Both the position numbers and the translations under genes were made by a program. A DNA stretch of 48,568 nt from Phyllosticta citribraziliensis (Eukaryota): the NCBI RefSeq assembly GCF_038025025.1, contig NW_027117339.1, positions 2,728,001 to 2,776,568 of the forward strand, written 5' to 3'. Below the pieces are notes generated by a model. It was not told the DNA's origin and searched no databases. It saw nothing but the letters and a program-made list of their open reading frames with translations. How positions within the stretch are numbered: the first letter of the stretch is position 1; each line of letters opens with the position of its first letter. Positions 9,078 to 47,101 of this stretch are shown piece by piece.

Positions 9078-9663
9078 TATTATAGGCTAATAGGTCACCT
9101 GATTAGTAGGCTGGTTCTAAGTAACTATCTAGTTAATAATAAGGTATATAAGTATAGGAGATAAAGCTAAGTAAGAAGGGTATATAATAAGGTATAAGTT
9201 AAGTTAGTAGGGAGTCTACTTAGGAGTATTAATTATAAGAAAATAAAGATGGCTATCTATAGTATTTATATAATAAAATCCTTTTTATATTCTATTACCT
9301 AACTTACCTTAGGAATTATAACTAAAGGAAGGTAGGTACTATAAGAGAAGAGACCTTATCTTAATTCTAAATTATATAGTAGTTTACTAGCTTATTAATA
9401 GTAATATACTTCTTAAAACTAACTACTTAACTAAGTCCCTACTATAGGTATAGGAGGTTCTATTCTTATTTCTATTATTATATTAGTAATATATATATAG
9501 GTACTAGGGTTAAATTATCTAAGTAGCTATAGCTCTTAAGGAGTTAGGTAACTTTAGTATATATAGCTTATAGTTATAGCTAGTAGTTATAGTATAGGTA
9601 TACCTAGTACTTAATACTAAGTAGTATTTAATATAATTATAGGTTTTTAGCTAACCTATAATA
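9078..9663 (-). repeat. E3 3' LTR
   Basis: Direct repeat of 17387-17972, adjacent to the polypurine tract. Confidence 0.95.
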
Positions 9664-10151: not shown

Positions 10152-11789
10152 ATAGCTAGTAGTAATAGTTCCTCTAGTAGATCTTTAGAGTTTATACCTT
10201 TATATTCTTTAATACCTACTCTTACTAGCTAGCCTTATACTACTAGTCCTATATATACTCCTACCTATTTAGTTACTTTATCTATATATACTATATTATA
10301 TAGCTATACTACTCCTTCTAATAGTACTTCTACTATTACTTACTATTATACTTAGGCTTACTAATCTAAATATATATATCCTAGTATTAGTCCTTCTTAT
10401 AGCTCTATTAATCTAATTATAGGCCCTTCTAACTATCTACCTTTACCTTATTACCTTTACTAGTAGCCCTTACCTATATATAAAGGAAAGGGAAGAGCTA
10501 AGGAAGAGTCTAGTTCTAAGAGTTCTAGTAGGGGTTCTTTAGGCTTATCTTTACTAGAACCTAAACCTAAAGGATTTAATAAAGGTGGTATATATATCCT
10601 ATACTTAGGGGAGGTTTAGGCTACTTTAAGTAGGGTAAATAATCTATCTATTCTTTAGCTTAGAATTATACTAATAGAATCCTAGGCTCTAGGAAGTAAT
10701 ATTACCTATAGTATATATAAGGAGCTCCTATTATTACCCTATAGCTATATAGGTATTCTTATAGTTCCCTCTATTTTAGTAAATAACCTAGTATATTATT
10801 ATTCTTAAGCTTCTACTATAGCTATCTAGTTTACTAGTATCCTATAGGTAATAGGTTATAAGTACTATATATATATAGTACTACTAGGTAGTATTTACTA
10901 TCTATTTATTAGTTATTACTAGGTCCTAGGTTCCTTTAGTAGTAGCTATAGTAACTATAAGTAAGATAATAGTACTTCCTCTTATAGTATATATAACCCT
11001 AATAACTATATTTATAATAACTAGTATAATCTATTAGGTAAGGTCCCTAATTATTTAGATAACTTTATAGCTAGTCTTAGTAGTTTATCCTTAGAGAATA
11101 AGCCTATACTAGATACTAGAGCTTCTTTATCTAGGGAGACTAAGGCTAGCCCTACTAGTCTATTTATTAATATACCTTTACCTATATATATACTAGCTAT
11201 TCTATCTACTAGTTCTACTTCTACTACTTCTACTATATCTACTACTTCTTTACCTAGTAGTACTACTCTTTCTAAGTAGGAGGTAATAGTTCTATATATA
11301 CCTATAGGTTATCCTAGTTATATAGTTCCTATAGTCCCCTTAATAGCCTACTCTTCTTTATCCTTACCTATACCTAATAAGTATATTCCTTCTAATAAGC
11401 TAGGTCCTTCTTCCTTATCTAAGGAGTCTAGCCCTTCTTCTTTATCTAGTATATCTAGCTATAGTAGTACTAGCCTACTAGTATATATAGCTTCTCTACC
11501 TATTCCTAGTTCCTCTACTACTATACTATTATTAGTTTCTAGTCCTAAGATATCCTCCTTATCTTCCTTATTATTACTATTACCTACTCCTATAGTGCCT
11601 ATCTATACCTATACCTAAATTATTACCCCTTAGGGTTCCCTAGTTAGTTTCTTTAGTAATAATACCTTTATAGACTACTAGGGTATACCTCTACTACTAT
11701 ATAGTCTAGGTAATTAGCTTTAGGCTAAGGCTCTTACCTATTAGTCTAAGGCTAAGGGTTTATAGGAGGGAGAGGAGGAAGAGCCTTAA
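10152..11789 (+). pseudogene. E3 accessory ORF relic, antisense to gag-pol; Ser/Pro-rich protein with a DUF3716-like Cys cluster
   Basis: One continuous frame in which every stop is a RIP-type TAA/TAG. Unmutated KGKGRA at 10482-10499. De-RIP 'AMAIQFTG....GCEHC.........PFVGCRRVPGSFGGSCGNCK......SCS' at ~10815-10988. Acidic C-terminus EGEEEEP. The start is approximate. Confidence 0.7.
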
Positions 11790-17386: not shown

Positions 17387-17972
17387 TATTATAGGCTAAT
17401 AGGTCACCTAATTAGTAGGCTAGTTCTAAGTAACTATCTAGTTAATAATAAGGTATATAAGTATAGGAGATAAAGCTAAGTAAGAAGGGTATATAATAAG
17501 GTATAAGTTAAGTTAGTAGGGAGTCTACTTAGGAGTATTAATTATAAGAAAATAAAGATAGCTATTTATAGTATTTATATAATAAGATCCTTTTTATATT
17601 CTATTATCTAATTTACCTTAGGAATTATAACTAAAGAAAGATAGGTACTATAAGAGAAGAGACCTTATCTTAATCCTAAATTATATAGTAGTTTACTAGC
17701 TTATTAGTAGTAATATACTTCTTAAAACTAACTACTTAGCTAAGTCCCTACTATAGGTATAGGAGGTTCTATTCTTATTTCTATTATTATATTAGTAATA
17801 TATATATAGGTACTAGGGTTAAATTATCTAAGTAGCTATAGCTCTTAAGGAGTTAGGTAACTTTAGTATATATAGCTTATAGTTATAGCTAGTAGTTATA
17901 GTATAGGTGCGCCTAGCGCTTAATACTAAGTAGTATTTAATATAATCATGGGTTTTTAGCCAACCTATAATA
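17387..17972 (-). repeat. E3 5' LTR
   Basis: Direct repeat of 9078-9663, followed by the TSD gctag. Confidence 0.95.
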
Positions 17973-24746: not shown

Positions 24747-25320
24747 TACTTATTTTCTAAGTTAGTATTAATAATATAAATAGACTAAACCTTATCCTTA
24801 TTTTTATCTAGGTAGTTATAGGAGATATAGCCTATCTTATTATAGTTATAATACTTTACTATAGATATATTATATTTACTAGTAATATTCTTATCCTTCT
24901 CTATATCCTTATTATCTATATAAGTAGTATTAGTATTAGTACTATTACTACCTTAACTACTATAGAATCCTCTATATCTACTATATCCTCTATAGGAGGT
25001 ATATCTACTAGTATATATATTATTATCTCTATCCTTATAAGTCTTAGTACTAAAGGTATAGTTATAGGTAGCCTAAGTATTAGTAGTCTCTATAAGAAAT
25101 AAGATTATATTATTAAGAGAGTTATTATATTAAGTAAGTATAAGATAGTAGTTACTTTATAAAAGCTTAACTAATAGACTTTCCTTTATAGTTATATAAT
25201 CCTAGCTAGTAGCTATAATAAGGGACTAGAACTTAATAAGGAATTCTTTTAGTAGGGTAGTACTTTATATAAGAGTACTAAGCTTAGTAATAGTATTACC
25301 CTACTTATTATTAATACTAT
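24747..25320 (-). pseudogene. E4 gag relic, C-terminal part
   Basis: CYNCNKMGHISRNC knuckle (~24812-24853). ttagaaaataagtag frameshift site plus stop (~24747-24760). Retrotransposon-gag-like helix region up to 25320. Confidence 0.8.
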
Positions 25321-25916
25321 TGTGGCACTGCTAGCCGGCACGGTTTTCGCGGCTTTTAATAGTTACTTTTAGTAATTGTAGTCCTTATTCTTAGCTGCAG
25401 TTTTAGCTTAGATATAAGTAGAAGATTAGGCTAGTAAGAAAATAAGACTATAGGTAGCTCTAGGATACTAGGAAGGTATAGTTCTGCGCGGTTTAGTAGT
25501 AATAATAATGGCTAATAAAAGTATAGGTGAATTTAGCATCTTTAGTAGTAATAGGAGGTTTTATACTATTAGTATTTTTAGTAGTAGATTAGCTGGTTAT
25601 ATACCCCCTTTTATAGCTGCTTATTAAGAGGTACTACTTATATAAATAAAGTCTTTTATACTTAGTTAAACTATTATCTACTAAATACTTAGTTATTTAT
25701 TTATTTACACTTATTATTTATACCTGAATCTTATACTACTTAGATAGTAAAGTAATAGCTAGATAGTAGCTTATTTTAGTTAGTTTAGTAGTTATTTTAT
25801 TCCTATCCTATAGAGCCTACTTATTTACTACTAGTTACTATCTCTTATACCTCTTCTAGTACTAGTACCTTAGCTGGCTAAGTAAGTATATTAGTAAGTA
25901 GCTAGTCCTACCTATA
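25321..25916 (+). repeat. LTR-A copy 3, probable 5' LTR of E5
   Basis: 596-bp match to the two solo LTRs, but flanks differ (ctat / tttt) so there is no TSD. A plus-strand gag-pol follows. Confidence 0.88.
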
Positions 25917-26476: not shown

Positions 26477-29400
26477 ATAAGTTCTTCTAGTAGATTAGGA
26501 AGAAATAGAAGAGGAGGAAGAGGTATATTAAGAGGAGATAAAGGGAAAGGATAATAATCTAGCTCTTATAATAGAGGGTACTCTCCTAGAGGCCAGCTAT
26601 AGAGGCCTATAATTACTTAAGAAGGACTATCTATAGTACCTCTATTACTAGTAATTAGTACTTAAGCTCCCTTATAAGGTATAGGGCTAGCTTTAGGTTT
26701 ATTTAGACCTTTTACTAGACTAGGTACACCTCCTATAATTATACTACTACTAGGGATAGATAATAATAAAATAATATAGCTAAGCTAAGCTACTTAGCTA
26801 ATACTAGATACTATAGAAATAACTCTCCCCTAGCCTAGGGGGGAGTTATTATTACTAATAGAAGCTAACTAATATTATATAAGAATAGCTTCCCTAATAT
26901 AGATAATCCTAATAAGCTAGATACTAGTACTAAAGTAAAGGCTATAGTTTAGGGGAGATAATATATTATTATTCCTTAAGATATATAAATACTTCTATAC
27001 TATAGCTAGGAGTCTCTTAGAAGAGTTTATACTAAAGCTAGTTTAGTATTATAAAACCCTAATAGGCCTAGAAATCTACTATACTATTAAGTTCTAGATT
27101 AGAGATTAGAAAGGTCTAAAAGTCTAGATACTAGTATAATATAAGAACTAAGATATTAGTATAATTAATAGGCACTAAAGCTATATTAAGAACTTAGCTA
27201 AGAGATATAAGGACCTCTATTACCCTTCTAAAGTAGATAAGTTTTTTAGGCTTTATAGGATACTTAGTAATAAGGTAGTAGAAGAAGGATATATTAATAA
27301 AAGCCTATAAGAGATATAGTTCCTTAATACCCTATATATAGATATATAAACTAGGTTCTTATAAAAGGGGTATTTAGCCTATAGAGCTAGGAATATTTAG
27401 TATCTCTAGTTATATATTAAGGCCTAGCTAGAATATAAGTAGTATATATTATTATACTCTATAGACTTACTAGAGGTTATAAATATAGTTATATACTATA
27501 TTAAGGGGCTAGACTATATTATAGACCCTATACTAGTAGGGAGAGGATACCTTCTATAGTCTCCTTTACTACTTATAGTATTATCCTCTAATAGCTCTTC
27601 CTCTATAACTATAGCCTTAAATAGATAATTAACCTCTAAGACTAGAACCCCTTTAGTAAAGAGTAATAATACTATAATTAGAGACCTAGTAGATAAGCTA
27701 GCTAAGATATATATTAAATTAATCTAGGAGGCTACTAGTTATATCTATAAATAGCTAGTAGATAGTAAGAAGTATAGGTATATTATAAATAATAGGGACC
27801 TATATATAAGAGTTATCTAGTTATTATTTCCCTATAATAGCTCTATTAGGATAGGCTAGCTAGCTAAGTAGTATATACTACTACTAGGATAATATACTCT
27901 ATAAGCAGGTCCTAGTCTTCTACTAATTAGGCTACTACTACCTAGGATAGCTCCTATAGGCTAACTATAGTATAACCCTAACTCCTATAACTAGATAGGA
28001 CCTACCAGTTTAAATATAAACTAAAGTATAGAAATAGGAGAATACTAGAGTTATAATAAGATAGGCTATATAGTTAGGAGTTATCCTATTCTATTACTAT
28101 TTATATATACTAGCCTTATATCTATTAGTTAAAATAGATATATCTAGGACTTTAATAGCTAGCTAATATTAACTTATAAGTAGAATAAATAGCTAGATAT
28201 TAAGAAGTACTTATAATATTAGGGGTAGATAAATAATAATAATTTACTAAAAATACTACTAGTACTAGAATAATAAGTAACTCCCTACTAGACTAGTAGA
28301 GAGTTATTATCTTAATCTATAATAAATAAAGAACTATAAGGATATTAGCCCCTACTATAAATTAATACTAGATATAATATACCTTTAGACTATAGCTAAT
28401 ATAATTAAGACTAATATAACTAAGACTAGGGCTAATATACTTAGATTAACTATACTTAGGCTAATATAGAGGATAGTAGGCCTTATTTCTATTAGATTTA
28501 CTATTATAATAAAGGAATAATATATAGTATATACTATTTTAAGGGTAAAGTATCTCTTAGAAATATAATCTTTATAAACCTAATAAAGATTATAAAATAT
28601 ATAAGGAAGCTAAAGAAGCTAGCTAGGAGAAGAGGAGCTAAAATCTTATAAGTAGTAGTTAATAAAATAGCTATTAATAAATAAGTTAGGAATATAGCTA
28701 AGTAGGTAATAATTAATAAGACTAGGAATATATCTAATAAGGATATCCTAGGTATAACCCTACTAGTAAATATACCTTAATAGCTAAGATAACTAGCTAT
28801 TACTAATCTACTAGGTAATAATATTAAAGAACCTACTATCTCTAGTAAAGAGCCTACTTAGGAGCCTAATATAGATAAACCTTAAAGGGTAATAGTAGAG
28901 GATACTAATAAGGATATATCTAATATTAAAGAGATCCTATAAAATAAGCTAAGTATTATACTAAAGGGATTAGAGAATAATAAGCTAGAGCTACTTAGTA
29001 AAGGGGCCCCCCTTAAGTAGTACTAGGTTAAAACTATTATATTTAGAGACCTATTCTATTATAAATAGTATAAACTAGGCCTAAATAGCTAGAGATATAG
29101 AGATATCTTTAATAAGGAGACTATTAGGTATATAAAAGGAATCCTTAGCCTATATAATAATATATAGAAGTTATTTCATACTCCTATTAGTACTAAGATT
29201 ATAGAAGAGGTCTAAGAAATACTTTATAATAACCTATAGGTACTAAATAAATACCTATATATAATAGAGGACCTATAGAAGCTAATATATATTATATATA
29301 TAGAACTAGTTAATAATATTAAAGGGTACTAGTTTAACTCCTCTAATAAGCCTATAAAATTTAACTTCTCTTAGTATTACCTATTTAAGTAAGAGGATTA

Positions 29401-30241
29401 TTTCCTAGATAGGATCTTTATATATTTAAATATACTAACTAATATATTAGTTACTAAGGGTAAAACTATCTCTAGAGTTTTTAACTATATATATACTAGC
29501 CTAGCTTATACTATAAAGTATATACCTACTTAGAGCTTTATTTTATATAGGCCTAATAGTAAGCCCCTATAGGATAGTAAGCCTATAGACCTATTAATAT
29601 ATAAGATATACTTTAGTATAGAAATACTAGAAGGTTAGGAGGATTCTATAATTATTAAAGGAGACTATAAACTAAAGCTAATAACTTATAAGGAGGTTAT
29701 AATACTAGCTAAATAATAGGGCCTTATTATCTACTAGGTCCTATTACCCTTTATCCTAGTATCCTTTAGTAGCTATATAGTATAAGTACTAGTAGATATA
29801 GGAGTAAATATAAATAGTATTTCTAAGGCCCTTATAGCTAAACTTAGTATCCTAGTATAAGATATACTACCTAATAGTTTTAATATAACTATAGGATTTA
29901 TAAATAGTTTAAAGTATAAAATTAAATAATAGATCCTAAGTTTAACTATTTAAATAGGAGATTAGTCCTAGAGTACTTATTTCCTAGTATATAACTAAAC
30001 TACCATCCCTATTATATTAGAAATACCCTAGATTATCTTAGTAGGTAGTAAATTTAAAACTATACCTACTAGGGTAGTTAAGCTATAGTTTACCTACCCT
30101 ATTAACCCTTACTACTATATAGAAATTATTACCTACTAGGTATTCCTATTTATTAAAGGTATTAAAGATACTACATACTATATAGGTCCTATTAGAATCT
30201 AAAGTAATAATAGTATATAAGTAGCTAGGCTAGGAAACTAG
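26477..30241 (+). pseudogene. E5 ORF1 relic (gag plus aspartic protease)
   Basis: RG-rich N-terminus from ~26477; Cys/His knuckle-like segment at ~28390-28455; ALVDTGA at 29786-29806; aggaaactag slippery site plus stop at 30232-30241. Confidence 0.72.
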
Positions 30242-33200
30242 CTAGTATAATAATTTAGGGGCTAATTAGTATATAATTACTATATTAACTAGTAGGAGGC
30301 CTATTTAATTAAAATAAATAAAATACTAAAAATATTAATTTAGTATTAGATAATATATTTTTAACTATATATATAATAGGAGAATAGAGTATTATTTAAT
30401 ATAGGGTATCTTAGTATAATATATTCCCTAATTATCTTAATACTACTAGATAATAAAACCTATACTAGTATATAGTATATAAATAAAAAGGTATAAAAAT
30501 AGAGCCTATAGATAACTTAATACTATAGAAGGAGTTATTAAATATAATTAAGGGATAGAAAACTAAAGAAACTATAATTATTAAGTAGACTATTATACTA
30601 GTAAGGGACCTCTAGGGCTAGGGATAATTTACCTACTTATTTTATTTAAGGATTACTATCTTTTAACTAGGTATATACCTTATATAGGAAAGGCTAGCTA
30701 GCCTTATTATTAGAGATAACCTCTAGCTAAGAGAGTAAGAACTAATACTAGAGATACTATATAGTAGAGAGGGTGCTATCTTATTTAATCTTTTAGAAAT
30801 AGAATGAGTTAAGCTAATAGTAATATATAGGTTCCCTATTAGGATAATACTATATAAGGCCTAGAGAGTTAGAGTATTATATATTTTATAAGCTAAAATA
30901 TAGTATATATTTAACTTACTTACTACCTAGTAAGATATAGGGATTATTAAGTACTACTCTAGTTAATATTATAATCCCTAGATAGTCTTACCTAAGAAGA
31001 ATAGTATATATAGGTAGATTAATAACTTATAAATACTAAATAATATTACTATTTAAGATGCTAGTATACTAGGACTAATAGATAATTATATAGAGTACTA
31101 GGGAGGCCTTATAATATATACCCTTATAGACCTATACTCTAGTTTTAATTAGTTTATAGTTACTAAAAAGTATTAGGATCTTACTAGATTTATTACTCCT
31201 TAGGGATACTAGTATAACTATATACTTTCCTAAGGTATAACTAATTCTCTAGGATAAGTAGTTTATAGCCTAAGATATATATTAGATAACTAATAAGATA
31301 AGGCTAACCTCTTTATAGATAATATTATAGAAGGCTAATAAAGGAGCTAATATAATAATATAGAAAGTATAGTAGTAGGAGTTAGGTAATTTATACTTAA
31401 GTATATCTAGGATATTAATAATATACTATAGAACCTAGAACTAGCTAGACTTATAATCTTAGGAGAGAAGTTCTTCTTTAGTATACTAGAAGTAGAAATT
31501 ATTAGGTTTAAATATAGAGAATTTAGATACCTACCTATTAAGTCTAAAGTAGGTAAGATTAATAACTAGGATACTTCCTAAGACCTTAAATTATTAAGGG
31601 GCTTCCTAGGAGTAACTACCTATTTTTACTACTAGGTTAAGGAGTACTTATATAAGGTAGTACTACTATATACTCTAATAAGGAAGAATATATCTTTTAC
31701 TTAGGAAAATAAGTATAATAAGGCTATAGCTAATATTAAGGAAGCTATTATAATAGTACCTACCTTAGTATCTATTATATATAGAGAGAAATCTACTAGA
31801 GATATTATTATAGCTATAGATAGTAGTAGTATAGGATAGGGAGTAGTTTTAATATAAGAGATAGATAGTACTAGGTATCTAGTAAGGTATAAGAGTAGTA
31901 TTTAGTCTAGGATAGAATTATTTTATAACTTTAAAAAGCTAGAATACTAAGTACTAGTATATATAATTACTAGATTTAAACTATAGCTATTTAGATAGGA
32001 CTTCTTTATTAAAATAGATTATTATATCCTATAAGATTACCTAAATAGTAGGACTAAATTTATAATAGATAGAGTCCTTAAGTAGTAGCTTAGCTAGCTA
32101 TTTATATAGGATTTTAAGATACTATATATTACTAGGATAAAGAATAGGGTAGTAGATATACTATTAAGAAGGCTAAATTTTAAAGAGTTAAGTAAGAAAG
32201 ATCTATAGAAATAAGTAGAGAAGATAGAAGATAAAATTAATAAGTTATTATTATCCCTATAGCTAAGTATATATATAGTTAGTTCTATAGACCTCCTACT
32301 AATTATCTACTAGGCTAGAGGAGAGTTAATATTAGCTAATTAAATACTAGTACTAGGCCCCTCTAGCCTACTAGGAGAGGTCATTCTATATAGAGTATTA
32401 TATAAGGAGTACTCCTAAGAATCTAAGGACCTAGCTAAATTTATTACCTATAGCCTACTCCTACCTAAAGTTATATAATTAGAGGCCTAGAAATAGTAAT
32501 AGAAGGCCTATAAGTACTAGGTCTATAACTAGTACCTATTCTAGTAATTATTAAAGAATATACTACTAAAATAAGTAGTAGATAATTCTATAGCTTAAAG
32601 ATAAATAGTATAATAACTATACTATAAGTTTAGCTATTATATTAAAGAAGGAATATTTAGGAAAGTCTTAAATTAGTACTTTTAAGAAGGGCTATAGACT
32701 AAGTATAAGTAAGAATACTAAGACTATTAGACCTATATATTTTATAGTTTATTATAAGATAAGGAGGCCCTCTATCTATCCTTTAAGATACTAATCCTAG
32801 GTAATAAATAGTATATAGATATTATCTATATACCTAGAGGATTCTATATTAATATATAAGAAGTAGTTTCTAATTAGATTAAAGAATAGATCCTATATTT
32901 ATTAAAAGCTATCCTAGTAGCTAACTTCTTATATAAAGAGCTAATTTATTACTATAGTACCTTTTAATATCTTATTATAGATAGAGGTAGTAAGAACCTA
33001 AGCTATACTAAACTTATTATAGAATTATACTATATATCTAAGGTTAATATTTTAGTATACTACCTAGAGTTAAATAGTATAGTTAAAAGAGGGTATAGGT
33101 AAATTAATAATATACTAGCTAAGCTATCTACTAGTAGTACTAAACCTTAGAGGCTATACTTCTATAGTATCCTATAGGCTAATAGGACTATAATTTATAG

Positions 33201-33915
33201 AATAACTAGAATAACTCTTATAAAGGTCTTATATAGGAGGGACTATATACTCCCTATTAAAATAGAGATACCTATATAGTAGCTTATACTATAATAAGAT
33301 ATAAAGAGTACTAGAGACCTACTAGCCTTATAAGTAAAGTAAATTAATCTATATAATAAGAAGCTCTAGGAGATTATATTATAAGTATATTACTTATAGG
33401 AGTAGAATAAGGAATAGTTTAATAGCTACTATCTATAAATTAGAGAAGTAATAGATAAGGGATTTAATAAAGGAGATTAGGTACTACTCTACTATACTAA
33501 GCTTAAGGATAAGTATAATATAAAGCTCTACTTCTTTTAGAAAGGGCTATTTAAGATCTATAAGGCTAATAGGGAAACTAGTACTTACTAGCTTAAAGAA
33601 CTTAGTAGAGAGAAGGCTATAAATCCTATTATAGGAGATAGGCTTAAGAAGTTTACTAATAAGGATAAGGACCTAGCTAAGATAGTCTATTAATAGGTTA
33701 ACCTACTACTAAGGACTAGTAGGAGCTAGTAGGACTAATTATTATACCTATTATACCTATTAAATAGACCCTAGCCTAAAACTAGGATTATATACTTTAA
33801 GACCCTAAAGGGTATATATATCCTATAGTATTCTAAGTAAGTATTAGACTAGTATAAAGCTATTAATAATAGCTAGGATAGTAAGGGTAAAAACCTAGAT
33901 AAATTAAGTAAATAA
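30240..33915 (+). pseudogene. E5 ORF2 relic (RT, RNase H, integrase)
   Basis: F(I/V)DD at 31312-31323; 'LRGFLG' (~31594-31611); RNase H (~31810-32170); integrase 'VDGGSEN' (~32977-32997) and 'AYHPESNGMVERGH' (~33055-33096); KGPF (33541-33552). The end is approximate. Confidence 0.9.
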
Positions 33916-34488
33916 AACTTCTAGATCCTTAGAGTTTTAGTATTTTAAGGTAAAGTTTATATATTTAAGGGAGGTAATAGCATTAAGAGAGTTTAAATTA
34001 ATAAGGGTATAGTAAGTTTAGTACTAATAGGCTAATAGTAATATTTACTAATTATAGCTTAGTATACTACTAATAACTCTCCTCTAGACTAGGGGATAGT
34101 TATTAGGCTAATTAGGAGCTATAAAATAACCCTATACAATACCTATAAGCTTATATATCCCTAAAAATCCTTAGGACCCTAATAACTAAACTATTAGGTC
34201 CTAAGCTAAAAATATTTCTTTATTAATACTATAAGTAGGAATAGAGTTTTAGTATTATTATTAAGTATACTAAGTTAATAAGGATATAGTATATAATTAT
34301 AAGCTAGCCCTTATATTAGGACTACTCCTTACTAAGTATTTTACTCTTAAGTAGTTATTTCTCTTACTTATAGTAAGATACCTTAGAATTTTCCTAATTA
34401 GGCCTAGCACAGGTAGTACTCTTACTAAAGAATTACTACTTAACTATTATAACTACCACCCCTATAATAATTCCCCCCTACTATTATA

Positions 34489-37220
34489 ATAGAGGACATA
34501 CTTACTAACCCTACTATAGATATTACCTCTACTAAAGATACTAATAATACTATTATCTTAGCTAATTATAATATTATCTATCTTTATAAAGCTTCTATTA
34601 CTAATATTATCTAATATATCTATAAGGCTAATCCTATAGGGCTATAAAGGAGCTTATTTATTACTAGTATATTCCTAGTACTATTACCTAGGATAACTAG
34701 AAAACTATACTAGACTATATTAGTACCTACCTATCTAGTAAAGATTACCTAGATAAGTACTATAATTTTATTTACTAGCTATATAACTTCTATAAATTAT
34801 AGTAGGAGGGCCTAGTTAGACTAGGTATAGTTATTAATAATACTATTAATTAGGGTACCTTATTCTAAGATCTTAAGAGCTATAGCTATAATATAGCCTA
34901 AGACTTCTAGATCTTTAAGAGGGACTATAATTTACTAAAGGAGAATTAGTAGTATAAAGATAAGTACTACTAGGATATATAAAATATAATTAATAGTAAC
35001 TTTAACTTTACTAAGCTTAATCTAGATAAGAATAGTAAAACTAGTATATATAATACTAAGGTAGGCTTATAAAAGTATATTAGTAGCTTTATAAAGATTA
35101 TAGGTCCTTAGAGGGGTATTATCTATATAGATTTTCTTAAGAAAGAGCTAGCTAAGATTATACTACTAGAGCTAGCTATTAAGGATAGAGGCTATAAGGC
35201 TCTACTACTAAAGTTAGCTTCCTAGACTATATTAGATAAGCTAATCTACTATATTAATTAGTATATTACTATTATAAAGCTATCTTATAACCCTAATATT
35301 ATAGGTGCCTAGCTAGTCTTTAATAAGTATAGAATACCTTACCTTTACCTAGACCTTATAATATAATAAGGGTCTCTATAGTAAGGATATATATATTATA
35401 TAGCTATTATTACCCTAGAGCTTATAGAGATACTACTAGAATAGGCTATATACTATAATTCTCTAATAAATACCCCTATAGAAATAGATACTAGCTAGTT
35501 TACTACCTTATTTAGAGAGTACTTAGGTAAGGGAGATTTTATTAGGGTAGTAACTATAGGCCTTAATAAGGATATAGATAAAGCTTTCTATTACTCTACT
35601 TATAAATTAGGAGTAATATTTAGTAAGTCTACTAGTATACTATCTATATAACTAAGTACTAGTATAGTAACTCTCCTCTAGGCTAGTAGTAAGTTATCTA
35701 CTACCTAAGCTAATAGTAATATTAACCTAGTACTTTCTATAAATAATTCTACTATTAGTTTTACTAGTCCTAGTAATAATTTAGTAGATATCCTTAATAT
35801 ATTAAGGCTATCTAATAATATTATTAATATAGCCCTAAGCTATAACTTCTCTAGTAATAATATCTAGAATACTTTAAAGTAATAGAGGTCCCCTCTCTAG
35901 GAGGAAGAGCCTAGTAAATACTACTATCTTAATATCCCTCCTATTACCCCTAATATATACTAGTAAATTATACTAACTATTAAAAGTTCTATTTATAGAA
36001 GTAATAATAATAATACTATTCTCCTAATAAATAAGGATGATAAGGAAGAGGTCTATAGTAATAAAGAGGTAGACTTAGACCTAGAGGTTATTATTATATC
36101 TTTAACTAATAGTACTAAGAAGATTTATATAGCTAAGTACTATACCTATACTAGAACTAATAGATAGATCTTATCTATTAAATTTTATAAGAAGTTTCCT
36201 ACTAAGGCTATCCCTATTTCTAAGGAGTCCTAGTAAAAGAAGCTTTATAAGCTTAATAAGGCTAGAGACTAGTATAATCTAAATAACTATTATAATTCTT
36301 ATATCTATAGAATTAGTAAATACTTAGGTCTTTAGACTAAGTAGGAAATAGATAACCTTATTTACCTCTACTTAGAATATATTTAGTATAACTATAAGAG
36401 ATTATCTAATATCCTATCCTATAAGGATAGGTATTATTAGTTTATACTATCCTTCTACCTAGTTTACCCTACTAATACTATAGGCCTATATATATTTAGC
36501 TATAACTATAATACCTAGTTTAAGGCTATTATAGCTATAGTTTAGAATATAATTCCTACCCTTAATAAGAGTCTTACTACTCTATTTAGTATAGGCTATA
36601 GCTAGTATCTAGACCTTATTAATACTCTACTTAGTAAGTTTAAGGCTACTAGTAATTTAGTTACTAATAGCTCTCTCTTTAGCTTTCTAGATAGTATATA
36701 CCCTAGAATTAATAAGGAGTTTAGCTACTACCTCTAGTACTAGTAGGAGATTAATACTTACTAAAACCTAGGCTAGAACTATATAATATTCTACTCTCTA
36801 GTATAGTAGCTTATTTACTAGTACCTAGTATACTAGCTCCTATATATTTTACTTAGGCCTAATTATACTTATTAGCTCTATATGATACTATACTATATAA
36901 AGGACTAGAAGAAGGGCAACTATATTAAGTTCTACTACTTTAATATTAACCTAAATAACTATACTAATACTAATAGGGGTATTAATATGATTTAGGGCAC
37001 TATCTCCCTTAATAGTAAGACTAATATAGACTATATAATTTTAGTAGAGGGCTTTATACCTTATTTTAAGGATTATAGGGATAGTACTATTACTAAGAAG
37101 GTATATAACCCTATAAATACTACTAGTATTACTAATATTAAGAAGGGTCCTATTCTTAACTACCTTACTAAGTTTACTAAAGATAGAGGCCTAAGCTAGA
37201 CTAATAGTAAGGTAGTAGCC
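34489..37220 (+). pseudogene. Accessory ORF relic with a C-terminal PhyH-like 2OG-Fe(II) dioxygenase domain, truncated
   Basis: Single protein-like frame from ~34640 to 37220, with a probable frameshift near 34640. De-RIP 'FRHFDVN' (36930-36950), 'RGVNMIQGTISLD' (36975-37013) and 'DCTILVEG'. NLS-like KRQRSP...SKRRRL (~35877-35930) and an acidic tract (~36000-36085). Confidence 0.68.
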
Positions 37221-38530
37221 TATAGTACCCCTGCTAAACTAGATAATTTTCTAGGAGATAGTTTTTATTAAGGAGTCTTTACTAGTAGAGTTATTTTCCT
37301 AAGGTCCCTCCCTAGGCTAATAAAATTAGTAACTATACTAGGGGGATAGTATACTAGGTACCCTACTTAGTATATCTAAAGGGGTAAATCTAGACTAGAA
37401 AACTATACTAAAAATATTAAGGAATTTTAGCCTTACTTATAACCTTAATAATATCCTTTTTTAAAAATACTATAAATAGTAATCTTTACTATAAAAATAG
37501 AAGTATAATAAAGATTAAGGGTAACTTTAAATATTAGGACCCTCTAAATAAAAACTAAGTATATAATAAGACCTTTATAACTAAGCTTAACCCTTTCTTT
37601 AAGAAGGAAAAAAGGGATTAGCTATATTAATAATTAATATAAGTAGAAAAATATCTAAGATAGACTTAATCTAGAGTAGTTATAAGGAAACTACTAGTAG
37701 TCTAAGATAGACTTTAACTAAGAAGGTTATAATCTAGAGTAGTTATATAAAGAGAAGGAGTACTAAAGGAAGAGAAAGAAATAACTATATATAAAAGGGA
37801 TAAGTAAAGTATATAAGGTTATAATAGCTATATATAATAGAAGTAAATATATAAGAGATAAGAGTAAGTAATAGTTAGAAGGAGGATATTAAATAGTAAG
37901 TAAGATATAAGATATAAAAAAGATTAATTAAATAATGCCCTTAAGGTAAACTTAGTTTAATCTACTTTAGTTAACTATCCTTATCTTTTAGTTCTTTTAT
38001 CCTTTATTAAAGAAAACTTAGAGTAAAGTAAGAAGCTTTTAGGGTTTAGAGTAACCTTACCTCTAGTTTCTAAGACCTTATTATTTCTAGCTAGAGTACT
38101 AACTATATTATATCTTTAGTTAGGTTATTATATTCTATTAAGTTCTTTAAATCTTAGATAAAATTACTAAAAATATATCTTATTTACTTAGAACTAGTTC
38201 TAAGTAATATCTTTATATTACCTTATTTAAACCCTACCTATTTAAACCCTTATTATTTAACCTTAAAGAACCTAAGATCTTTTACTAATACTTAAATTTA
38301 ACTAAGACTTATAGGAACTTAAGAAGATTACTAAAAGTACCTAAATTAGATAAGTTAAATTATTCCTTAAAAAGATTACTCTTAAATAAACCCTTTAAAA
38401 CCTTAAAACTAACTTTAAACTCATCTTCTACCCTCTCTCTAAAGAATATTATTACTACTTTTTAATAATAATAGGATATAACTTAACTTATTATTAAAAG
38501 ATTAGATAAGAAGAGCTAAGACTCTATAAT

Positions 38531-41500
38531 ATAATACTAGAACTATAGGACCCCCTCTAGTTATTAGCTATATCTTTACCCCTAACTAGTTCTAGGTACT
38601 TCTTAGCTATATTAATATCTATTAAACCCTAACCTCTAGTAGAGAAATATCCCTACTTTAATAAGCTATTATAATTAAATAACTACTCTTAAAGTATAGA
38701 ACTACTACCTACCTACTCTTTATTAAGAAATAAGCTATAAAGTAGATATATAATTTTAAATATCTTCTTAACTCTTATAGATATAATAACTAGGCTAAAT
38801 ATATAGAATTAGTTTAATATTTTAAAGGAAGGGATAACTATTAAGTAGTTAAAACTAAGAAGATAGGGAAGGAGGGGAATTAAAAAGCCTTTAAAGAATA
38901 GTTCCTTATTAACTACTCTAAAGGAGATCTAGAAAAAGATAAAGGAACTCTAAAGTAGCTTTACTACTTTATAAAGGAAAAGAAAAATCTTTAGAATAAT
39001 TAGAAGTACTTTTATTAGTACTAGTAAGTATATAAAATAGACTCTAAACTAATTAAGAAAAAGGGATTTATAATAGAAACCTAATAGATTAAATTATTCT
39101 TTAAGGGCTATTTAGATAAAGATATAGTATAGATTCTTAAGAAATATAATTTTATATAAAGTAAAAGAGATAACTAGTCCTAGGATAAACTAGTTAAGAA
39201 TATAAATAGAGCTAAAGAAATTACTAAAATATTAGAATAAGTCTAGGCTAATAACTTAACTTATTAATCTAAGTATTTACTCTTATAATATCTTAAGCTA
39301 GACCTTAAACTATATAAAAAGATTATTCTAGATTCTAAATTAAATAAATATATTAAACCTTTTACCTTTATAAAACTTATAGCCTTTAAAGAAGGACCCT
39401 CTAGTAAGGTAGTTATTAATAGTTTTAGAAACTTATTATACTAAGAATTAAACCCTAGTATAAAGGATATAGAAGAACTCTATAAATAGTTTTCCTATCT
39501 TAATATTAATATAGCTAAAGCCTAATATACTCTTAAATTTAATCCTTACTTTACTTATATATATACTAATAAGGATCTTTATTACTATTACCTTACTTAT
39601 ATATACCCTTAATTATATAAATATAATCCTTTAACTAGGCCTTATTAAAATAATTAGAACTTCTTAGCTCTCCTAAATAATTAATAATATCTAGTAAATA
39701 ATTATATAGAGGTACTATCTAATAGGTAGAATAGATAACCTATCTATTTTATATATAAAGAGGGTAGATATCTTATTTAGGATTATCTAAAAATTAAATT
39801 CTATAAAGATTAAGGCTAGATATATAAATATAAGAATAACTATTTCTTTATTAAAAAAGCTAAGGACTATACTCTATTAATACCCTTAATTATTATTCTA
39901 AGAGAGTTTAGTATAAAAAAGCTAGAAGCTATTAGGTAGGAGTTAAAATAATATAGTTATCTAATTTATAAATATTAAAAGCTACCTATAAAGAATATTT
40001 AAAGTAATATTACCTACTTCTATAACCCCTATTATAAACTAGATTAAGAAATAGATATCTTCTTCTTAGATAACCTAAGAATTATAAGAGACTTTAAAGT
40101 TAACTATTTTAAGGTAAATACTATAGATATAGATAAAAATATTTATAGCCCCTAATATCTTTAGCCTAATAAGATCTAGAAGGGAAGAATTAAATAATTA
40201 ATAAAGGCTTTAGATCTAAAGATAGGTATTAAATTAGCCTTTAAAAGAGTTAAGGTATATAGAAATCCTTATTTTAAAGAGCTTAAAGAAGAATAGGAGG
40301 TAATTCTAGCTTTTTAATTATAAAATAGACTACTAATAATAGACTAAATTAATTAACTAATCTTTTACTAGACTTTTAGAGTTATCCTACCCTAGATATA
40401 AGGTAATAATATAGATATATAAGATATAAAAGTAGCCCCTAAAAAGGGATCCTCTAGTAATAAGGATACTTAGCCTAATACCTATCCTCTACTTCTTATT
40501 AACTCTCTCTTCTAATTATTATAGAGGGAGATAGTAATTAACTTCTTTAATTAATCTAAAAGCTTTTTAGAATAGAATAAGCTTAAACCTATTATAGATA
40601 AGCTTCTATATTTAAGATTTAATATTAAAGGAATTCTAATAAGGACTATTAGAAATACTATTAGTACTATTTAAATTAGCCTAAGATAGAGTAAAACCCC
40701 TATTAAAATAGATATAGACCTAATTAAAATATGTACTACCCTAATTAATAAAGAAAAAGTTAGTATTAAGGTAATAACTCTAGTTAATAATAGAAGAACT
40801 AAATTAGATAAAAAGAGTAGACTCTATAATAACTATATAATCTCTATAGCTAAGTACTTTATTAAGTTTATAGAAAGAATTATAAATAATTAAGTAAAAG
40901 AAAAAGAATAAGCTACCTATTAGAATAAGATTTTTAGTAAACTAGAAAAGGAATTTAATACTATAAAATTATATCTACTAGGTCTAGGAAGATTATTCTA
41001 TCTAATCTTTCTAAGAATTATTCTAAGATACTACTAGAAAGGGGAAGACTTATTAGATAATAATAATATATAAGAAGTCCTAAGCTATATAGAATAGTTA
41101 AGAATAAGGTAATACTAGTATAAAAGAAAAATTATTAAGAATAGATAGATTAGGCTTTATATACTAGAAAGAATTATTTAATATCTTAAATATTAGCTTA
41201 ATTATACTTAAAAGTAGATTTAAGAATCCTCTAACTAGATTAATAAAAATATATATAGGTATTTTAAACTAAATCTACCCTTAATATTAACTAGACTACC
41301 TAAAGCTATACTATAATCTAAAAACTCTAAACTAGTTTAGAGTAATTAAATAGAGGAAGAAAAAGCTAGTTTAGAAGCTCTCTTATAGCTTATAAAGGAA
41401 TAGGGTTATTAATACTCCTATATAGAGAAAGAGTTTTAAAAGAGGCTAAATAGCTTTATCTTTAATAGAGGAGTCTATAAAGAAGTAAATATTATTTATA

Positions 41501-42420: not shown

Positions 42421-45400
42421 AGTTTATACCTTTCTTATCTTTTCCTATATTAGTAATCCCTTTACTAAATTAAAATAAACTACCTTCCTTCTTTAATTCT
42501 AAGTTTAAAAAATTTAGCTTATTACCTAAAGAATAGGATAGAATTTTTATAGTTATACCTAACTCTCTTATTATAGAAAAGAATTATTTTAAAATTAAAT
42601 AAAAAGAAGCTAAAGATAATTAAGAATAGCCTTTTAATACCTTACTATCTACTAGATAATAAGAGGAAAATAAAGAATTTAAAGTAGAATAATAGCTACC
42701 TAATAAGATTTATAAACCTTTTATCCCTTAAAGTTAAGGAGTTAATACTACCTATAAAAATAAAGTAAATAAAATAAAACTAGTTAATAATACTAGACCT
42801 TCTACCTAAGTACTAGAAGTTAATTTAGAATAGAGGGTAAAAGTATAGGAAAAAGTACTTATAATAATACCTATAGTATTAAGTCCTTATAGCTATCTTA
42901 GATTTATCCCCTAATTTATAACTACTTAGACTAGATCTTATCTTACTAAAGAATAACTATATAAACTATATATATAGAATAGTTTATAGGAATAAGAAAA
43001 AGTAATCCTACTTAAAATCCTATTTAATTAAGAAGAAACCCTAGCCTAGACCTTTTAAGAAATAGGTAAAGTTAATAAAGTAGTAGTACCTCTATAAAAG
43101 ATTAAGATAATTCCTTATAAAGCTTAATAAATAAAGGGATACTATATTCCCTAAGCTCTCTAAAGTATTTTTAAAGAAATAGTATATAAATATTATATAA
43201 AAGGAATACTTAAATATAGCTAAGCTAGCTACTAAAATAGGGTTTTCCTAATAGAAAAGAAATCTTTAAGGATCTATAGAATAATTAATAATATATAATA
43301 AGTTAATACCTAAACTATCTATAATATATACTAACCCCTAATAATAGATAAATATTCTAAATAGTTTATAGGTATATAACTACTTAGTATCCTTAACTTC
43401 CTCTCTAGCTATAATTAAATAGGTCTCTATATTAACTCCTAAGACTTAATAACTTTCTAGATAAGCCTTAACCTTTTCTAATAAATAATACTTCCTTAAG
43501 GAGTAACTAACTTACTAGGCTAATTTTAAAGGGTTATAGAATTTATTCTTTACTAGATCTTTAAGAAAGTAGCTAGACCTTATCTTAATAATATTAGAGT
43601 AGCTAAACTAAAGACTAAGTATAATAATAAGATAGTAATCCTTAGAGTTTAATAATATATTCTTAAGTACCTACTAAACCTAGATACTACTCTATTAGAA
43701 CTTAAACTTACTAGATATACTATTTTAGTACTAAAGTATTAGTTCTATTACCTAAAGGTTATAATTATTAAATATATCTATAGAGAAAATAGAAGGGAGC
43801 CCTACTAATTAAAAATTACTACTATTATAGACTAGCTAAAATATAAAAATAAATACTATATTAGAATATTTTTAGGAATATATACCTACTATTATATTTA
43901 GATTAAAAACTATACTATAGTAGCTACTCTATTATTTAATCTCCTTTACTAATTAGTAGAATTTACTTAGGGCCTTAAAGAATAAGACTTAATAGATTCT
44001 CTAAAGAGAAGCCTAATAAGGGCCTTAGTACTTAGATTAATTAACTATAGTAAAGGAGCTAGAGAAATTATTTTAATAGTTAATACTTCTAATATTAGCT
44101 AGGGAGGCTACCTCCTCTAGATAGGAGATAATAATAAAAGATACCCTTATTATTATAAGAGTAGAATATAGAATTCTATAGAATAAAACTATAACTCTAG
44201 AAAACTTAAATATAAGGCTCTCCTTAATAGCCTAAAGAAATTTAAGTCTTAGCTATATATAATAAAATTTACTATTAAGACTAATTATACTATCTTAATA
44301 GCCTAAATTAATAAAATAATAATAGATCTCCTTAAAGTACTTATAACCTATTAGCTTACCTAGATCTAATTAATAGACTTTAATATTTATTATATCCCTA
44401 GAAGAAAGAACCTAGTAGTAGATAGACTCTCTTAAAATCTAACTTTTAAGTAACTACTAGATAAAGAGGAGGACCCTATACCCCTATAAGATATAGATAA
44501 CTAGATATAGAATTAATTATTTATATATAATATTAAAGTATGCCCTATCTAGCTTAATAATAATAATAAAGAAAATAGGGATATATTAAATATTACTATA
44601 AACTAGTTTAGAGTATTATTACTAGAAATTCCTATAATTTAATCCCTACTTAATAAGTTATATTTAAGTAAAAAATATCTTATAATTACTAGATAGCTTA
44701 TAATACTTTAGTATCCTCCTTATTTAGATTAAGCTAAATTTAAATCCTTTAAGAAGTAGGCCCTTAAATTTATTATTTATAACTAGATATTATTTAAAAA
44801 GGTAATCTAAAACTTACTACTCTAAAGGGTTATTAATAGCCCTAAATAATAATAAGCTATTTAGGAAAGTATTTATAATAAAAATAGTTACTAAGGCCTA
44901 GAAGCTACTTTAGCTAAGGTCTTAAAACTCTACTTTTAAGATACTCTTTATAAAGATATCTATTAATTTATTAAATCCTATCTAGAATATTAGTAATAAG
45001 TATCCTATTATATTAAAGAATCTCTTAAAGTCTCCTATATAACTACTTTAATATCTTAATAGGTAATTAATATAACCTATATTACTAAAAGTAATAGAAA
45101 ATTAAAATATATTATTATTTAGGAAAAAGTCTTAGAATAGGTTAAGGTAGCTATTATAAAAATAGCTAACTCTTCTAAAATAGTAAAATTTATCTATAAA
45201 GATATTATCTACTAATATAGATACCTAACCTAGATTACCTAAAATAGAGGCCCTAAAAATAAAGTAGTAGTAGAAGCCCTTTAAATTAAATATAGTATTA
45301 ATATCTACTTAATAAGTACTTACTACCTAATAGCTAATAGCTTTATTAAATAAGGTTATTAGCCTATCCTTAATACCCTTTTAAAACTTACCTAGGGTAG

Positions 45401-46110
45401 TAGTAGATATTAGATATTCTATTTACTAACTATTATTTAGGTAGACTATACTACTACTTAAAGAACTACTAGTCTAATACCTATAGAATTAATATATAGG
45501 TATAATATAATTCTCCTAATTAAGCTAGAAATCCTTTCTTAGTAGGCTCTATCTTAGTCTTTAGTATAGAATAATACTAACCTCCTTACCCTTTAGACCT
45601 AACAGATTAAATAATAAGACTAGTAACTATTTAAAGTTACTTTATATACCTATTAATAAAGAATTATAGCTATAAAATACTAGGATAATATTTATAATAT
45701 CTATCCTAGTATTAATATTCTAAATAAAGGAGATATAGTACTCTTAAAAAACTTAGTACTAGAAATAGCCTATAATAAAAAGATATAGTTTTAGTAGTAA
45801 GGCCCCTATAAGATCTTTTAAATTAACTATTATATAGATACTTATTATCTTAAGGAGCTAGAAAGAAGAGGGGCTTAGCTTTAAGGTACCTACCTAAAAT
45901 AATAGCTTAAAAGATTCCTATAATAAGAGGATAACCTTTAAGAAGAACCTATTATACCTATAAAAGACCTAATTCTAAAAGAGTAACCTATAGCTAAGGA
46001 ACCTCTAGTATTAATCTATAAAAGGTACCCTCCTCTATAATAAAGGGGATATAATATCTAGACTCTTATACCCCTATTTAAAGAGAGGCTTTACTTTAGT
46101 TATAGACTTA
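42420..46110 (+). pseudogene. E6 ORF2 relic (RT, RNase H, integrase)
   Basis: 'LPQG.TNS' (~43491-43514); YLDD at 43581-43592; RNase H 'VDASDIGWGG.L.Q.....KRYPCRYESGIWN..EQNYDSGKLECKAL' (~44078-44225); integrase 'DGGPENK' (~45243-45263); GPY at 45801-45809. Ends approximate. Confidence 0.9.
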
Positions 46111-46417: not shown

Positions 46418-46717
46418 ATAGATTATATCTACCTTAAAATTATAGTTCCTAAAGCCCCTAGGATACCCTATATAGTCTATAGCTATAGTCCCTAATATAC
46501 CTAGGACTATATACCTACCCTACCTACTAGTAACTATAGTTACTACCCTAATTTTTAAAGTAAATATACTAGAATCCCTATTTCCTATTAGCTAAAATCT
46601 TAGAGATCCCCTTATTATAGCCCTAGAAAAATAACTAAAAAAGTAATAGTAAATAGTTCCTAAGGCCCTCTCTATTACTACCCTTAACTTAAAAAACTAA
46701 GAAAATTAAAAAATTAA
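46418..46717 (+). pseudogene. Possible short accessory ORF with a Zn2Cys6-like cluster and basic tail
   Basis: TAT/TAC codons at 46469-46567 are spaced as CX2C-X5-C-X3-C-X8-CX2C-X6-C if read as RIP-mutated Cys codons. K/R-rich sequence follows. Confidence 0.4.
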
Positions 46718-47101
46718 ATCTTACTAAGATCCCTATTACCCTTATTTTAAAATTCCTAGTTAAAAAACTAGAAATTTAGTATTTTTTATTTTCTCTATAA
46801 ATTCCTAGGAGGTCTCCTACTTATTTATTAAGTATAAAAAGAACCTAGAAAAATCTTACTCTTTAGTTCCCTCTTTATCCTATCTAGTAATATAATAACC
46901 TAGGTACCTAGTCTAAAGTTATACTACCTAATATTAAACTTAATAACCTTATTATTATATATTTTTATATATAAAAATTAGGTTAGAAACTTAGATTATA
47001 GTAGGATTTTAGTAATAAACCCTTATATTAGTTACCTTAATACTAGCTTAAAATATTAATTAAAAAATAGAAAACCTAACTTACTAATTTCCTATAGCCT
47101 A

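Follow-up and report, generated by a model that had tools for sequence, protein, structure and literature searches.

A probable remnant of a PhyH-like dioxygenase gene carried by a Ty3/Gypsy element in Phyllosticta citribraziliensis

What is the long open reading frame (ORF) that follows the pol gene of a Ty3/Gypsy retrotransposon, here called E5, in the genome of Phyllosticta citribraziliensis? The stretch of DNA analysed (contig NW_027117339.1, positions 2,728,001 to 2,776,568, 48,568 nucleotides; hereafter the window) had been described before from its letters alone. In that preliminary description, an ORF at 34489-37220 was proposed to be a gene for an Fe(II)/2-oxoglutarate (2OG) dioxygenase carried by the element and damaged by repeat-induced point mutation (RIP). 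We searched for relatives of this ORF, modelled the fold of an intact relative and surveyed the genomic neighbourhoods of the family. The ORF proved to be real, and it is probably what is left of the third gene (ORF3) of E5. In relatives, the same gene is found inside Gypsy elements, between integrase and the 3' long terminal repeat (LTR).

Reading the decayed ORF

In frame 0 of the forward strand (coordinate mod 3 = 0), 10-17 stop codons per 200 codons were counted between about 34900 and 37200, as compared with 17-52 in the remaining forward frames. When the window was divided into tiles of 1200 nt, those covering 35101-36600 contained 21-23 stops per 400 codons, which puts them in the lowest 5% (158 tiles, median 34). 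A phmmer search of 1.84 billion representative proteins returned 189 matches with E-values of at most 1e-3, of which 13 were at or below 1e-10. All of these matches fell on ORF residues ~600-890, i.e. on the final ~280-290 codons. From 51 phmmer matches of at least 700 amino acids (aa) we built a local family profile of 880 positions. Window positions 36309-37142 on the forward strand matched profile positions 375-639 with an E-value of 5.5e-23.

We also scored the DNA in a RIP-aware manner, by choosing for each codon the best amino acid that can be reached through RIP-type reversions only (T from C before A, A from G after T). The score of 36309-37142 against the profile rose from 85 bits for the plain translation to 327 bits. 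Similarly, identity to the relative P0003 rose from 54 of 242 residues in the raw translation to 103 of 242 with RIP-type reversions, while shuffled sequences reached 28.7 ± 4.7 (maximum 46, n = 500). Because both values lie far above the raw and shuffled ones, the de-RIP reading of the ORF is sound. It includes the reconstruction of an H-x-D motif put forward in the preliminary description: the codons TAC TTT AAT, now read as Y-F-N, align to the H-x-D of the family, and the two changes involved (TAC from CAC at 36936-36938 and AAT from GAT at 36942-36944) both stand in RIP context. A search for a second copy of the conserved core within the window found none (RIP-aware score 214 for the core, 54.5 for the next best). 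The parts of the ORF, all on the forward strand, are as follows.

34489-36308, forward strand: putative, poorly conserved N-terminal half of ORF3, start uncertain; frame 0 is open-like from ~34900
36309-37142, forward strand: conserved ORF3 segment from the profile match, comprising the Cys/His helical domain and the first half of the dioxygenase beta-helix
36936-36944, forward strand: remnant of H-x-D (now Y-F-N: TAC TTT AAT), aligned to the family motif
37143-37260, forward strand: 3' truncation zone in which homology ends, from the profile, RIP-aware scores and stop density

The extent first given to the ORF was thus borne out for the conserved segment. We could not confirm the start at 34489: frame 0 becomes clearly open only at ~34900, and the N-terminal half has no detectable homology. 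In relatives, the part up to profile position 500 measures 430-709 aa; judged from these lengths, the true start of ORF3 probably lay at 34550-35400.

At the other end, hmmsearch detected no match anywhere in the window to profile positions 640-880, the part with the second His and the Arg of the active site. RIP-aware scores for the three frames of 37143-38644 were 36-45, as compared with 51.7 ± 12 for controls, and thus gave no sign of the C-terminal third. Stop density in frame 0 climbed to 24-29 per 200 codons beyond 37200. The window copy is a dead relic, destroyed by RIP and truncated at its 3' end, with homology ending near 37200-37260. It lacks a complete set of iron- and 2OG-binding residues because the truncation removed the second His and the Arg. 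Hence, the H-x-D...H signature holds for the family, as described below, and for the window copy in its first part only.

RIP has affected the whole region. The 48.5-kb window is AT-rich (GC content ~0.26) and the dinucleotides CpA and TpG have nearly gone. The RIP index (CA+TG)/(AC+GT) was 0.03 for the ORF, 0.02 for pol and 0.03 for the entire window. The ORF is indeed as RIP-mutated as pol, as had been noted, and saturated RIP spans the entire window, ORF and pol alike. Since the whole window is saturated, the level of RIP alone is no proof that the ORF was once multicopy, and this part of the preliminary argument falls away.

Protein family and predicted dioxygenase fold

The relatives are proteins of 700-1150 aa from Pezizomycotina. 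Among the names of their sources are Peziza, Coleophoma, Venustampulla, Xylona, Sclerotinia borealis, Rhinocladiella, Coccidioides, Penicillium and several lichen fungi. The labels they carry, if any, are 'hypothetical', 'uncharacterized' or, rarely, 'PhyH'; one row, labelled Sphagnum balticum, reads 'unnamed protein product'. Many of the database members are fragments or recur on several contigs. A further search yielded 158 family matches at E-values of at most 1e-10 across many ascomycetes.

The fold was modelled on the C-terminal 451 aa of ORF3 from locus L017, an intact Gypsy-borne relative, rather than on the window copy. AlphaFold2 predicted a double-stranded beta-helix with a mean predicted local distance difference test score (pLDDT) of 82.5. 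Foldseek matched this model to hydroxylases of the PhyH clan (proline hydroxylase H11, GriE, SnoN, EvdO1 and EctD) with E-values of ~2e-7. In VIA-align, the best match listed was YbiU (4rgk; Z 20.4, root-mean-square deviation (rmsd) 2.9, 266 residues aligned), followed by Candida Gig2/DUF1479 (6akz; Z 19.8, rmsd 3.1, 265 residues aligned). Other PhyH-clan enzymes gave Z 13-15. AlkB homologues scored far lower (ALKBH3 Z 8.2, ALKBH6 Z 8.0), and neither TET/JBP nor JmjC proteins had an entry among the best 50 VIA-align matches listed. The predicted fold therefore supports a PhyH-clan Fe(II)/2OG dioxygenase, with YbiU and Gig2 (DUF1479) as its nearest relatives in structure.

The H-x-D motif, the distal His and the Arg were all kept in 33 of the 34 aligned members. 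The full set was present in all six Gypsy-linked rows (L017, L023, L040, L039, L061 and L069) as well as in L041. Together with the fold of L017, this conservation upholds the proposal of a PhyH-like double-stranded beta-helix enzyme. The exception is L078, with Q and Y at the two iron-binding His positions. The L078/L079 lineage is probably a catalytically dead variant, judging by these substitutions, in which the long frame is still open.

Pfam places the family at some distance from its named relatives. The PhyH model (PF05721) matched 19 of 34 members at E-values of at most 0.1, the best being 1.5e-6. Among 18 relatives, P0001 (35.5 bits) and P0009 (22.4 bits) reached the PhyH cut-off of 22 bits, and P0091 (21.0 bits) fell below it. 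The Gig2-like model (PF07350) matched none of the 34 members at E-values of at most 0.1, and the family profile had no matches among PDB sequences. The nearest clusters in the ESM Atlas carry PhyH, and one carries Gig2-like. As judged from these sequence scores, the family belongs to the PhyH clan only remotely and stands outside Pfam PhyH proper.

The N-terminal half was modelled as two helical domains, one at residues 5-211 and one with a conserved CxC...C..H motif, joined by a disordered linker (212-358). These N-terminal domains had no informative structural match (best Foldseek E-value 2.7, best VIA Z 6.8). In the window ORF, the acidic tract and the basic motif lie upstream of the Cys/His domain, in the position of the disordered linker.

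Genomic contexts of the family and origin of the window copy

To see where the gene resides in relatives, we used 80 family loci from a scan of metagenome contigs. Pfam searches of the flanking ORFs in L017, L023 and L040 showed that the dioxygenase gene is immediately preceded, on its own strand, by ORFs for gag/aspartyl protease and for reverse transcriptase (RT)/RNase H/integrase. The ORF that immediately precedes it in L043 matched the C-terminal (integrase) end of pol by tblastn. L039, L061 and also L043 had gag-pol directly downstream, which fits tandem or collapsed repeats. Searches by tblastn with eight gag/pol queries placed gag/pol ahead of the dioxygenase gene, in the same orientation, in 15 of the 27 loci whose upstream flank was 3 kb or longer and in 17 of the 35 with 1.5 kb or more. 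When both sides are counted, 18 of the 80 loci have gag/pol directly adjoining the dioxygenase gene on its strand.

All seven long loci that were tested for LTRs (L033, L037, L055, L060, L068, L075 and L077) had a pair of direct repeats enclosing gag, pol and the dioxygenase gene. These repeats were 149-357 bp long and 91-96% identical, and a purine-rich tract stood just before the 3' repeat. At least five RIP-like copies lie on different contigs of one metagenome with the same layout kept, and we conclude from them that the element spread with ORF3 aboard. These results support the dioxygenase gene as internal cargo of Ty3/Gypsy elements, with integrase before it and the polypurine tract and 3' LTR after it, in intact as well as RIP-damaged relatives. 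The idea that homologs in other fungi would occupy this place was thereby supported.

In one close pair, L017 and L023, the ratio of nonsynonymous to synonymous substitution (dN/dS) was 0.20 for gag, 0.093 for pol and 0.071 for ORF3. These ratios indicate purifying selection on ORF3 in this pair, as strong as that on pol. The pol of L040 aligned to that of L017 over 266 residues only, and by this measure ORF3 has carriers in no fewer than two Gypsy lineages, deeply diverged from one another. A separate observation concerns L061 and L069, in which the pols are close (path length ~0.28), the ORF3 proteins are only 41% identical and their C-terminal domains are ~1.0 apart; ORF3 in these loci would have either evolved much faster or been exchanged.

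The features of the window that belong to E5, or probably do so, precede the ORF on the same strand.

25308-25914, forward strand: copy of the repeat LTR-A, candidate 5' LTR of E5, assigned by position only
27000-29900, forward strand: probable gag-protease region of E5, suggested by a low-stop frame (coordinate mod 3 = 2)
30622-33654, forward strand: RIP-mutated pol of E5 (RT, RNase H, integrase), from tblastn and Pfam

The LTR-A copy at 25308-25914 is ~94% identical to copies at 7591-8193 (forward) and 4450-5049 (reverse) in a blastn self-comparison of the window. The region at 27000-29900 held 10-18 stops per 200 codons in its frame; Pfam was blank over 28202-30301, and gag queries from relatives gave no tblastn match to the gag region. 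Residues 173-1148 of the intact L017 and L023 pols aligned to 30622-33654 by tblastn (E ~1e-57), and Pfam RT_RNaseH matched 31795-32043 on the forward strand (E 1.6e-5). Between pol and the ORF lies a gap of ~0.6-1.2 kb, which is too short for the 600-bp LTR-A, and no LTR-A-like sequence or other detectable repeat was found in it by blastn or 22-mer comparison. A short sequence in this gap, at 34065-34121, matches 26818-26867 at 82-85% over 40-51 nt; it is palindrome-like, as the match occurs in both orientations.

We assign the ORF to E5 because it has the same strand and the same spacing after pol as in the relatives, and because no repeat intervenes between the two. Under this best explanation, which we hold to be probable, 34.5-37.26 kb would be the RIP-destroyed, 3'-truncated ORF3 of the Ty3/Gypsy element with pol at 30.6-33.7 kb. 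In intact relatives, ORF3 encodes ~850-1150 aa. The protein begins with a helical domain, continues through an extended disordered linker rich in acidic and basic residues to a small helical Cys/His domain (CxC...C..H), and ends in a PhyH-clan Fe(II)/2OG dioxygenase with H-x-D...H and a 2OG-binding Arg. In these relatives the gene lies in sense orientation, after integrase and ahead of the polypurine tract and 3' LTR, and is copied along with the element. The preliminary description placed the ORF inside an LTR pair; this holds for the seven relatives tested, and for the window copy it is inferred from them, as no 3' LTR is present in the window.

Several observations weigh against the assignment to E5. 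Downstream of 25914, neither a further LTR-A copy nor any 3' LTR was found within the window by blastn self-comparison or by comparison of purine/pyrimidine 22-mers. The N-terminal 1.8 kb (34488-36308) had a RIP-aware profile score of 98 (controls 93.5 ± 17), i.e. no detectable homology; this is unsurprising in that the N-terminal half is poorly conserved in the family, with 15-27% identity to the first alignment row when the close relative L023 is excepted. Of the 27 loci that have 3 kb or more of upstream flank, 12 have no Gypsy upstream; near them lie, among others, Helitron helicases, a Plavaka transposase, DDE_3, DUF6589, SNF2/DEAD helicases and rva_4 integrase-core ORFs. By RIP-compatible identity, Gypsy-linked members come no nearer to the window copy than unlinked ones do (96-105 of ~240 for both). 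In the pol tree, both pols of the window join on long, RIP-biased branches and E5 is not placed among the dioxygenase carriers; this tree cannot place E5, because RIP lengthens the branches and there is no outgroup. Since the family also occurs without Gypsy neighbours, the window copy may have had a non-Gypsy origin: a copy of the same family foreign to E5, either a fragment of a terminal inverted repeat (TIR) transposon or a free-standing gene, could have come to lie beside a 3'-deleted Gypsy in this repeat-rich, RIP-saturated region. Inverted repeats around the gene in two relatives are in keeping with such an origin. They are 63 nt long and 94% identical in L001 (6410-6472 and 12754-12816), around an rva_4 integrase-core ORF and the dioxygenase, and 290 nt long and 92% identical in L029 (2245-2534 and 12962-13251), around the dioxygenase and a second, divergent paralogue. 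We nevertheless consider a foreign origin improbable, given that strand and spacing after pol match the Gypsy-linked loci, that pol and ORF are not separated by LTR-A or another detectable repeat, and that blastn self-comparison found neither inverted nor direct repeats flanking the ORF in the window.

Another possibility is that the ORF was an ordinary single-copy metabolic PhyH gene, for example of secondary metabolism, killed by RIP that leaked from neighbouring repeats and with no link to mobile elements. PhyH-clan enzymes do act mostly on small molecules, according to the titles of the PDB matches, and the window-wide saturation of RIP means that duplication of the ORF is not proven. We nevertheless hold this possibility to be very unlikely, because this particular family of ~900-aa proteins with a Cys/His domain lies inside LTR pairs in seven of seven loci tested, directly adjoins gag/pol on the same strand in 18 of 80 and has many database members that are fragments or recur on several contigs. 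Finally, a low-stop frame might arise by chance in AT-rich, RIP-mutated DNA. The antisense frame is also poor in stops (97 per 1066 codons), and Pfam found no match, PhyH included, in the raw translation of the ORF, in which stops were given as X or Q. This explanation is refuted by the profile match, by the 13 phmmer matches at or below 1e-10 and by a RIP-compatible identity more than 15 standard deviations above the shuffles.

The family is not Gypsy-specific, and the inverted repeats in L001 and L029 suggest that TIR-type DNA elements may carry it as well. In the tree of C-terminal domains, Gypsy-linked copies were scattered: six label changes were needed, of which the starred branches force at least four, and 51 of 500 shuffles were as low as six. 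The tree pointed to no single origin and did not show which way the gene had moved. Copies near a Plavaka transposase, DUF6589 or Helitron helicases were located at L051 1016-2281 (reverse), L047 12847-14355 (forward), L038 1442-4159 (reverse) and L048 7610-10642 (reverse); these are kinds of element that carry TET/JBP genes in other fungi. L027, which holds only a fragment of a family member, has ordinary host genes as neighbours.

Downstream of the ORF, the window contains a second RIP-mutated Gypsy with pol at 42741-45815 (forward) and low-stop frames from ~38400 and at 46500-47100. Its pol matches the pols of dioxygenase carriers slightly better than does that of E5 (273 versus 210 bits). 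From the end of this pol to the end of the window, RIP-aware profile scoring found no dioxygenase core, despite a low-stop frame. E5 may have lost its 3' LTR and the end of ORF3 when the second Gypsy inserted, or through a deletion. Comparison of purine/pyrimidine 22-mers and a Smith-Waterman search found no matching LTRs for an insertion into the ORF3 region, and the purine/pyrimidine Smith-Waterman search for matching repeats in the window gave scores not above shuffles. Elsewhere in the window, direct repeats at 9078-9663 and 17387-17972, ~97% identical and 8.3 kb apart, are probably the LTRs of another element. The lowest stop density of all was found at 10201-11700 (forward, frame 0; 13-15 per 400 codons), and GC content at 11-12 kb was 0.32, the least AT-rich stretch.

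Known systems and possible function

LTR retrotransposons may carry an additional ORF, as exemplified by the env-like ORF3 of Athila and of errantiviruses. An extra gene between pol and the 3' LTR that is conserved with the element has also been described for Boty of Botrytis (brtn) and for the additional ORFs (aORFs) of plant elements (PMC7264820). We considered Boty brtn as an earlier description of ORF3 and rejected it, because brtn is antisense (PMC7264820). In contrast to brtn, which the available text of PMC7264820 and of a Botrytis preprint does not describe as an enzyme, ORF3 lies in sense and encodes a predicted dioxygenase.

Dioxygenases of other lineages are known from mobile elements. 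TET/JBP genes ride on fungal DNA transposons, including KDZ, Plavaka, hAT, Harbinger, Helitron and others, and a role in anti-silencing or anti-hypermutation has been proposed for them, according to the available text of PMC12730594. The present family resembles that system in being an Fe(II)/2OG dioxygenase that occurs as an accessory gene on several types of fungal element (PMC12730594). It differs in that the ORF3 lineage appears PhyH/DUF1479-like, its carrier is an LTR retrotransposon and its hosts are Pezizomycotina; it is known here from sequence and a structural model. Acquisition of a 2OG dioxygenase by Ty3/Gypsy has a parallel in orchids, where elements contain an AlkB-type ALKBH domain, an RNA demethylase acting on N6-methyladenosine (PMC9289625). 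Whereas the orchid case, in the available text, is a plant element with a domain of the AlkB family, ORF3 is a separate fungal ORF of ~900 aa that is assigned to the PhyH clan, with Z of ~8 to AlkB proteins as compared to ~20 to YbiU/Gig2.

YbiU (4rgk) and Gig2 (6akz), the best structural matches of the C-terminal model, share only ~12% sequence identity with it and, unlike ORF3, are stand-alone cellular proteins without its N-terminal domains. In the available text of papers on Escherichia coli genes, YbiU features among those without experimental evidence of function. The preliminary description knew of no characterised dioxygenase cargo in fungal Gypsy elements, and we likewise found no description of a PhyH-like dioxygenase carried by Gypsy in the literature searched, with most subscription journals and Repbase lying outside the scope of that search.

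What the enzyme might do can be addressed only tentatively. It is conceivable, though on balance doubtful, that ORF3 oxidises a macromolecule in the nucleus, either nucleic acid or chromatin-associated, and thereby aids replication of the element or its escape from genome defence. We favour a macromolecular nuclear target because the family has spread over several classes of mobile element, has extra conserved N-terminal domains and contains a long charged linker. The structural comparison weighs against such a target, as the nearest folds are those of the uncharacterised YbiU/Gig2 proteins or of PhyH hydroxylases acting on small molecules, versus Z of ~8 for the AlkB type. The more specific role proposed in the preliminary description, to counter 5mC or H3K9me silencing or RIP, gained no direct support from these results. 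A broader and more speculative idea, which we think unlikely as it stands, is that a PhyH/DUF1479-like dioxygenase with N-terminal targeting domains would be an accessory gene shared by mobile elements of Pezizomycotina, as ORF3 of several deep Gypsy lineages and in TIR-bounded DNA elements, where it would remove or block a nuclear genome-defence mark on DNA, RNA or chromatin.

If true, this idea would give ascomycetes a counterpart of the TET/JBP transposon system that travels on retroelements. Whatever its role, a different and uncharacterised dioxygenase family emerges here as a third gene conserved in Gypsy elements of fungi. Ascomycete proteins that are now labelled only as hypothetical, uncharacterised or PhyH gain a context, and ORF3 is a concrete candidate for how retroelements handle RIP, DNA methylation and heterochromatin in fungi.

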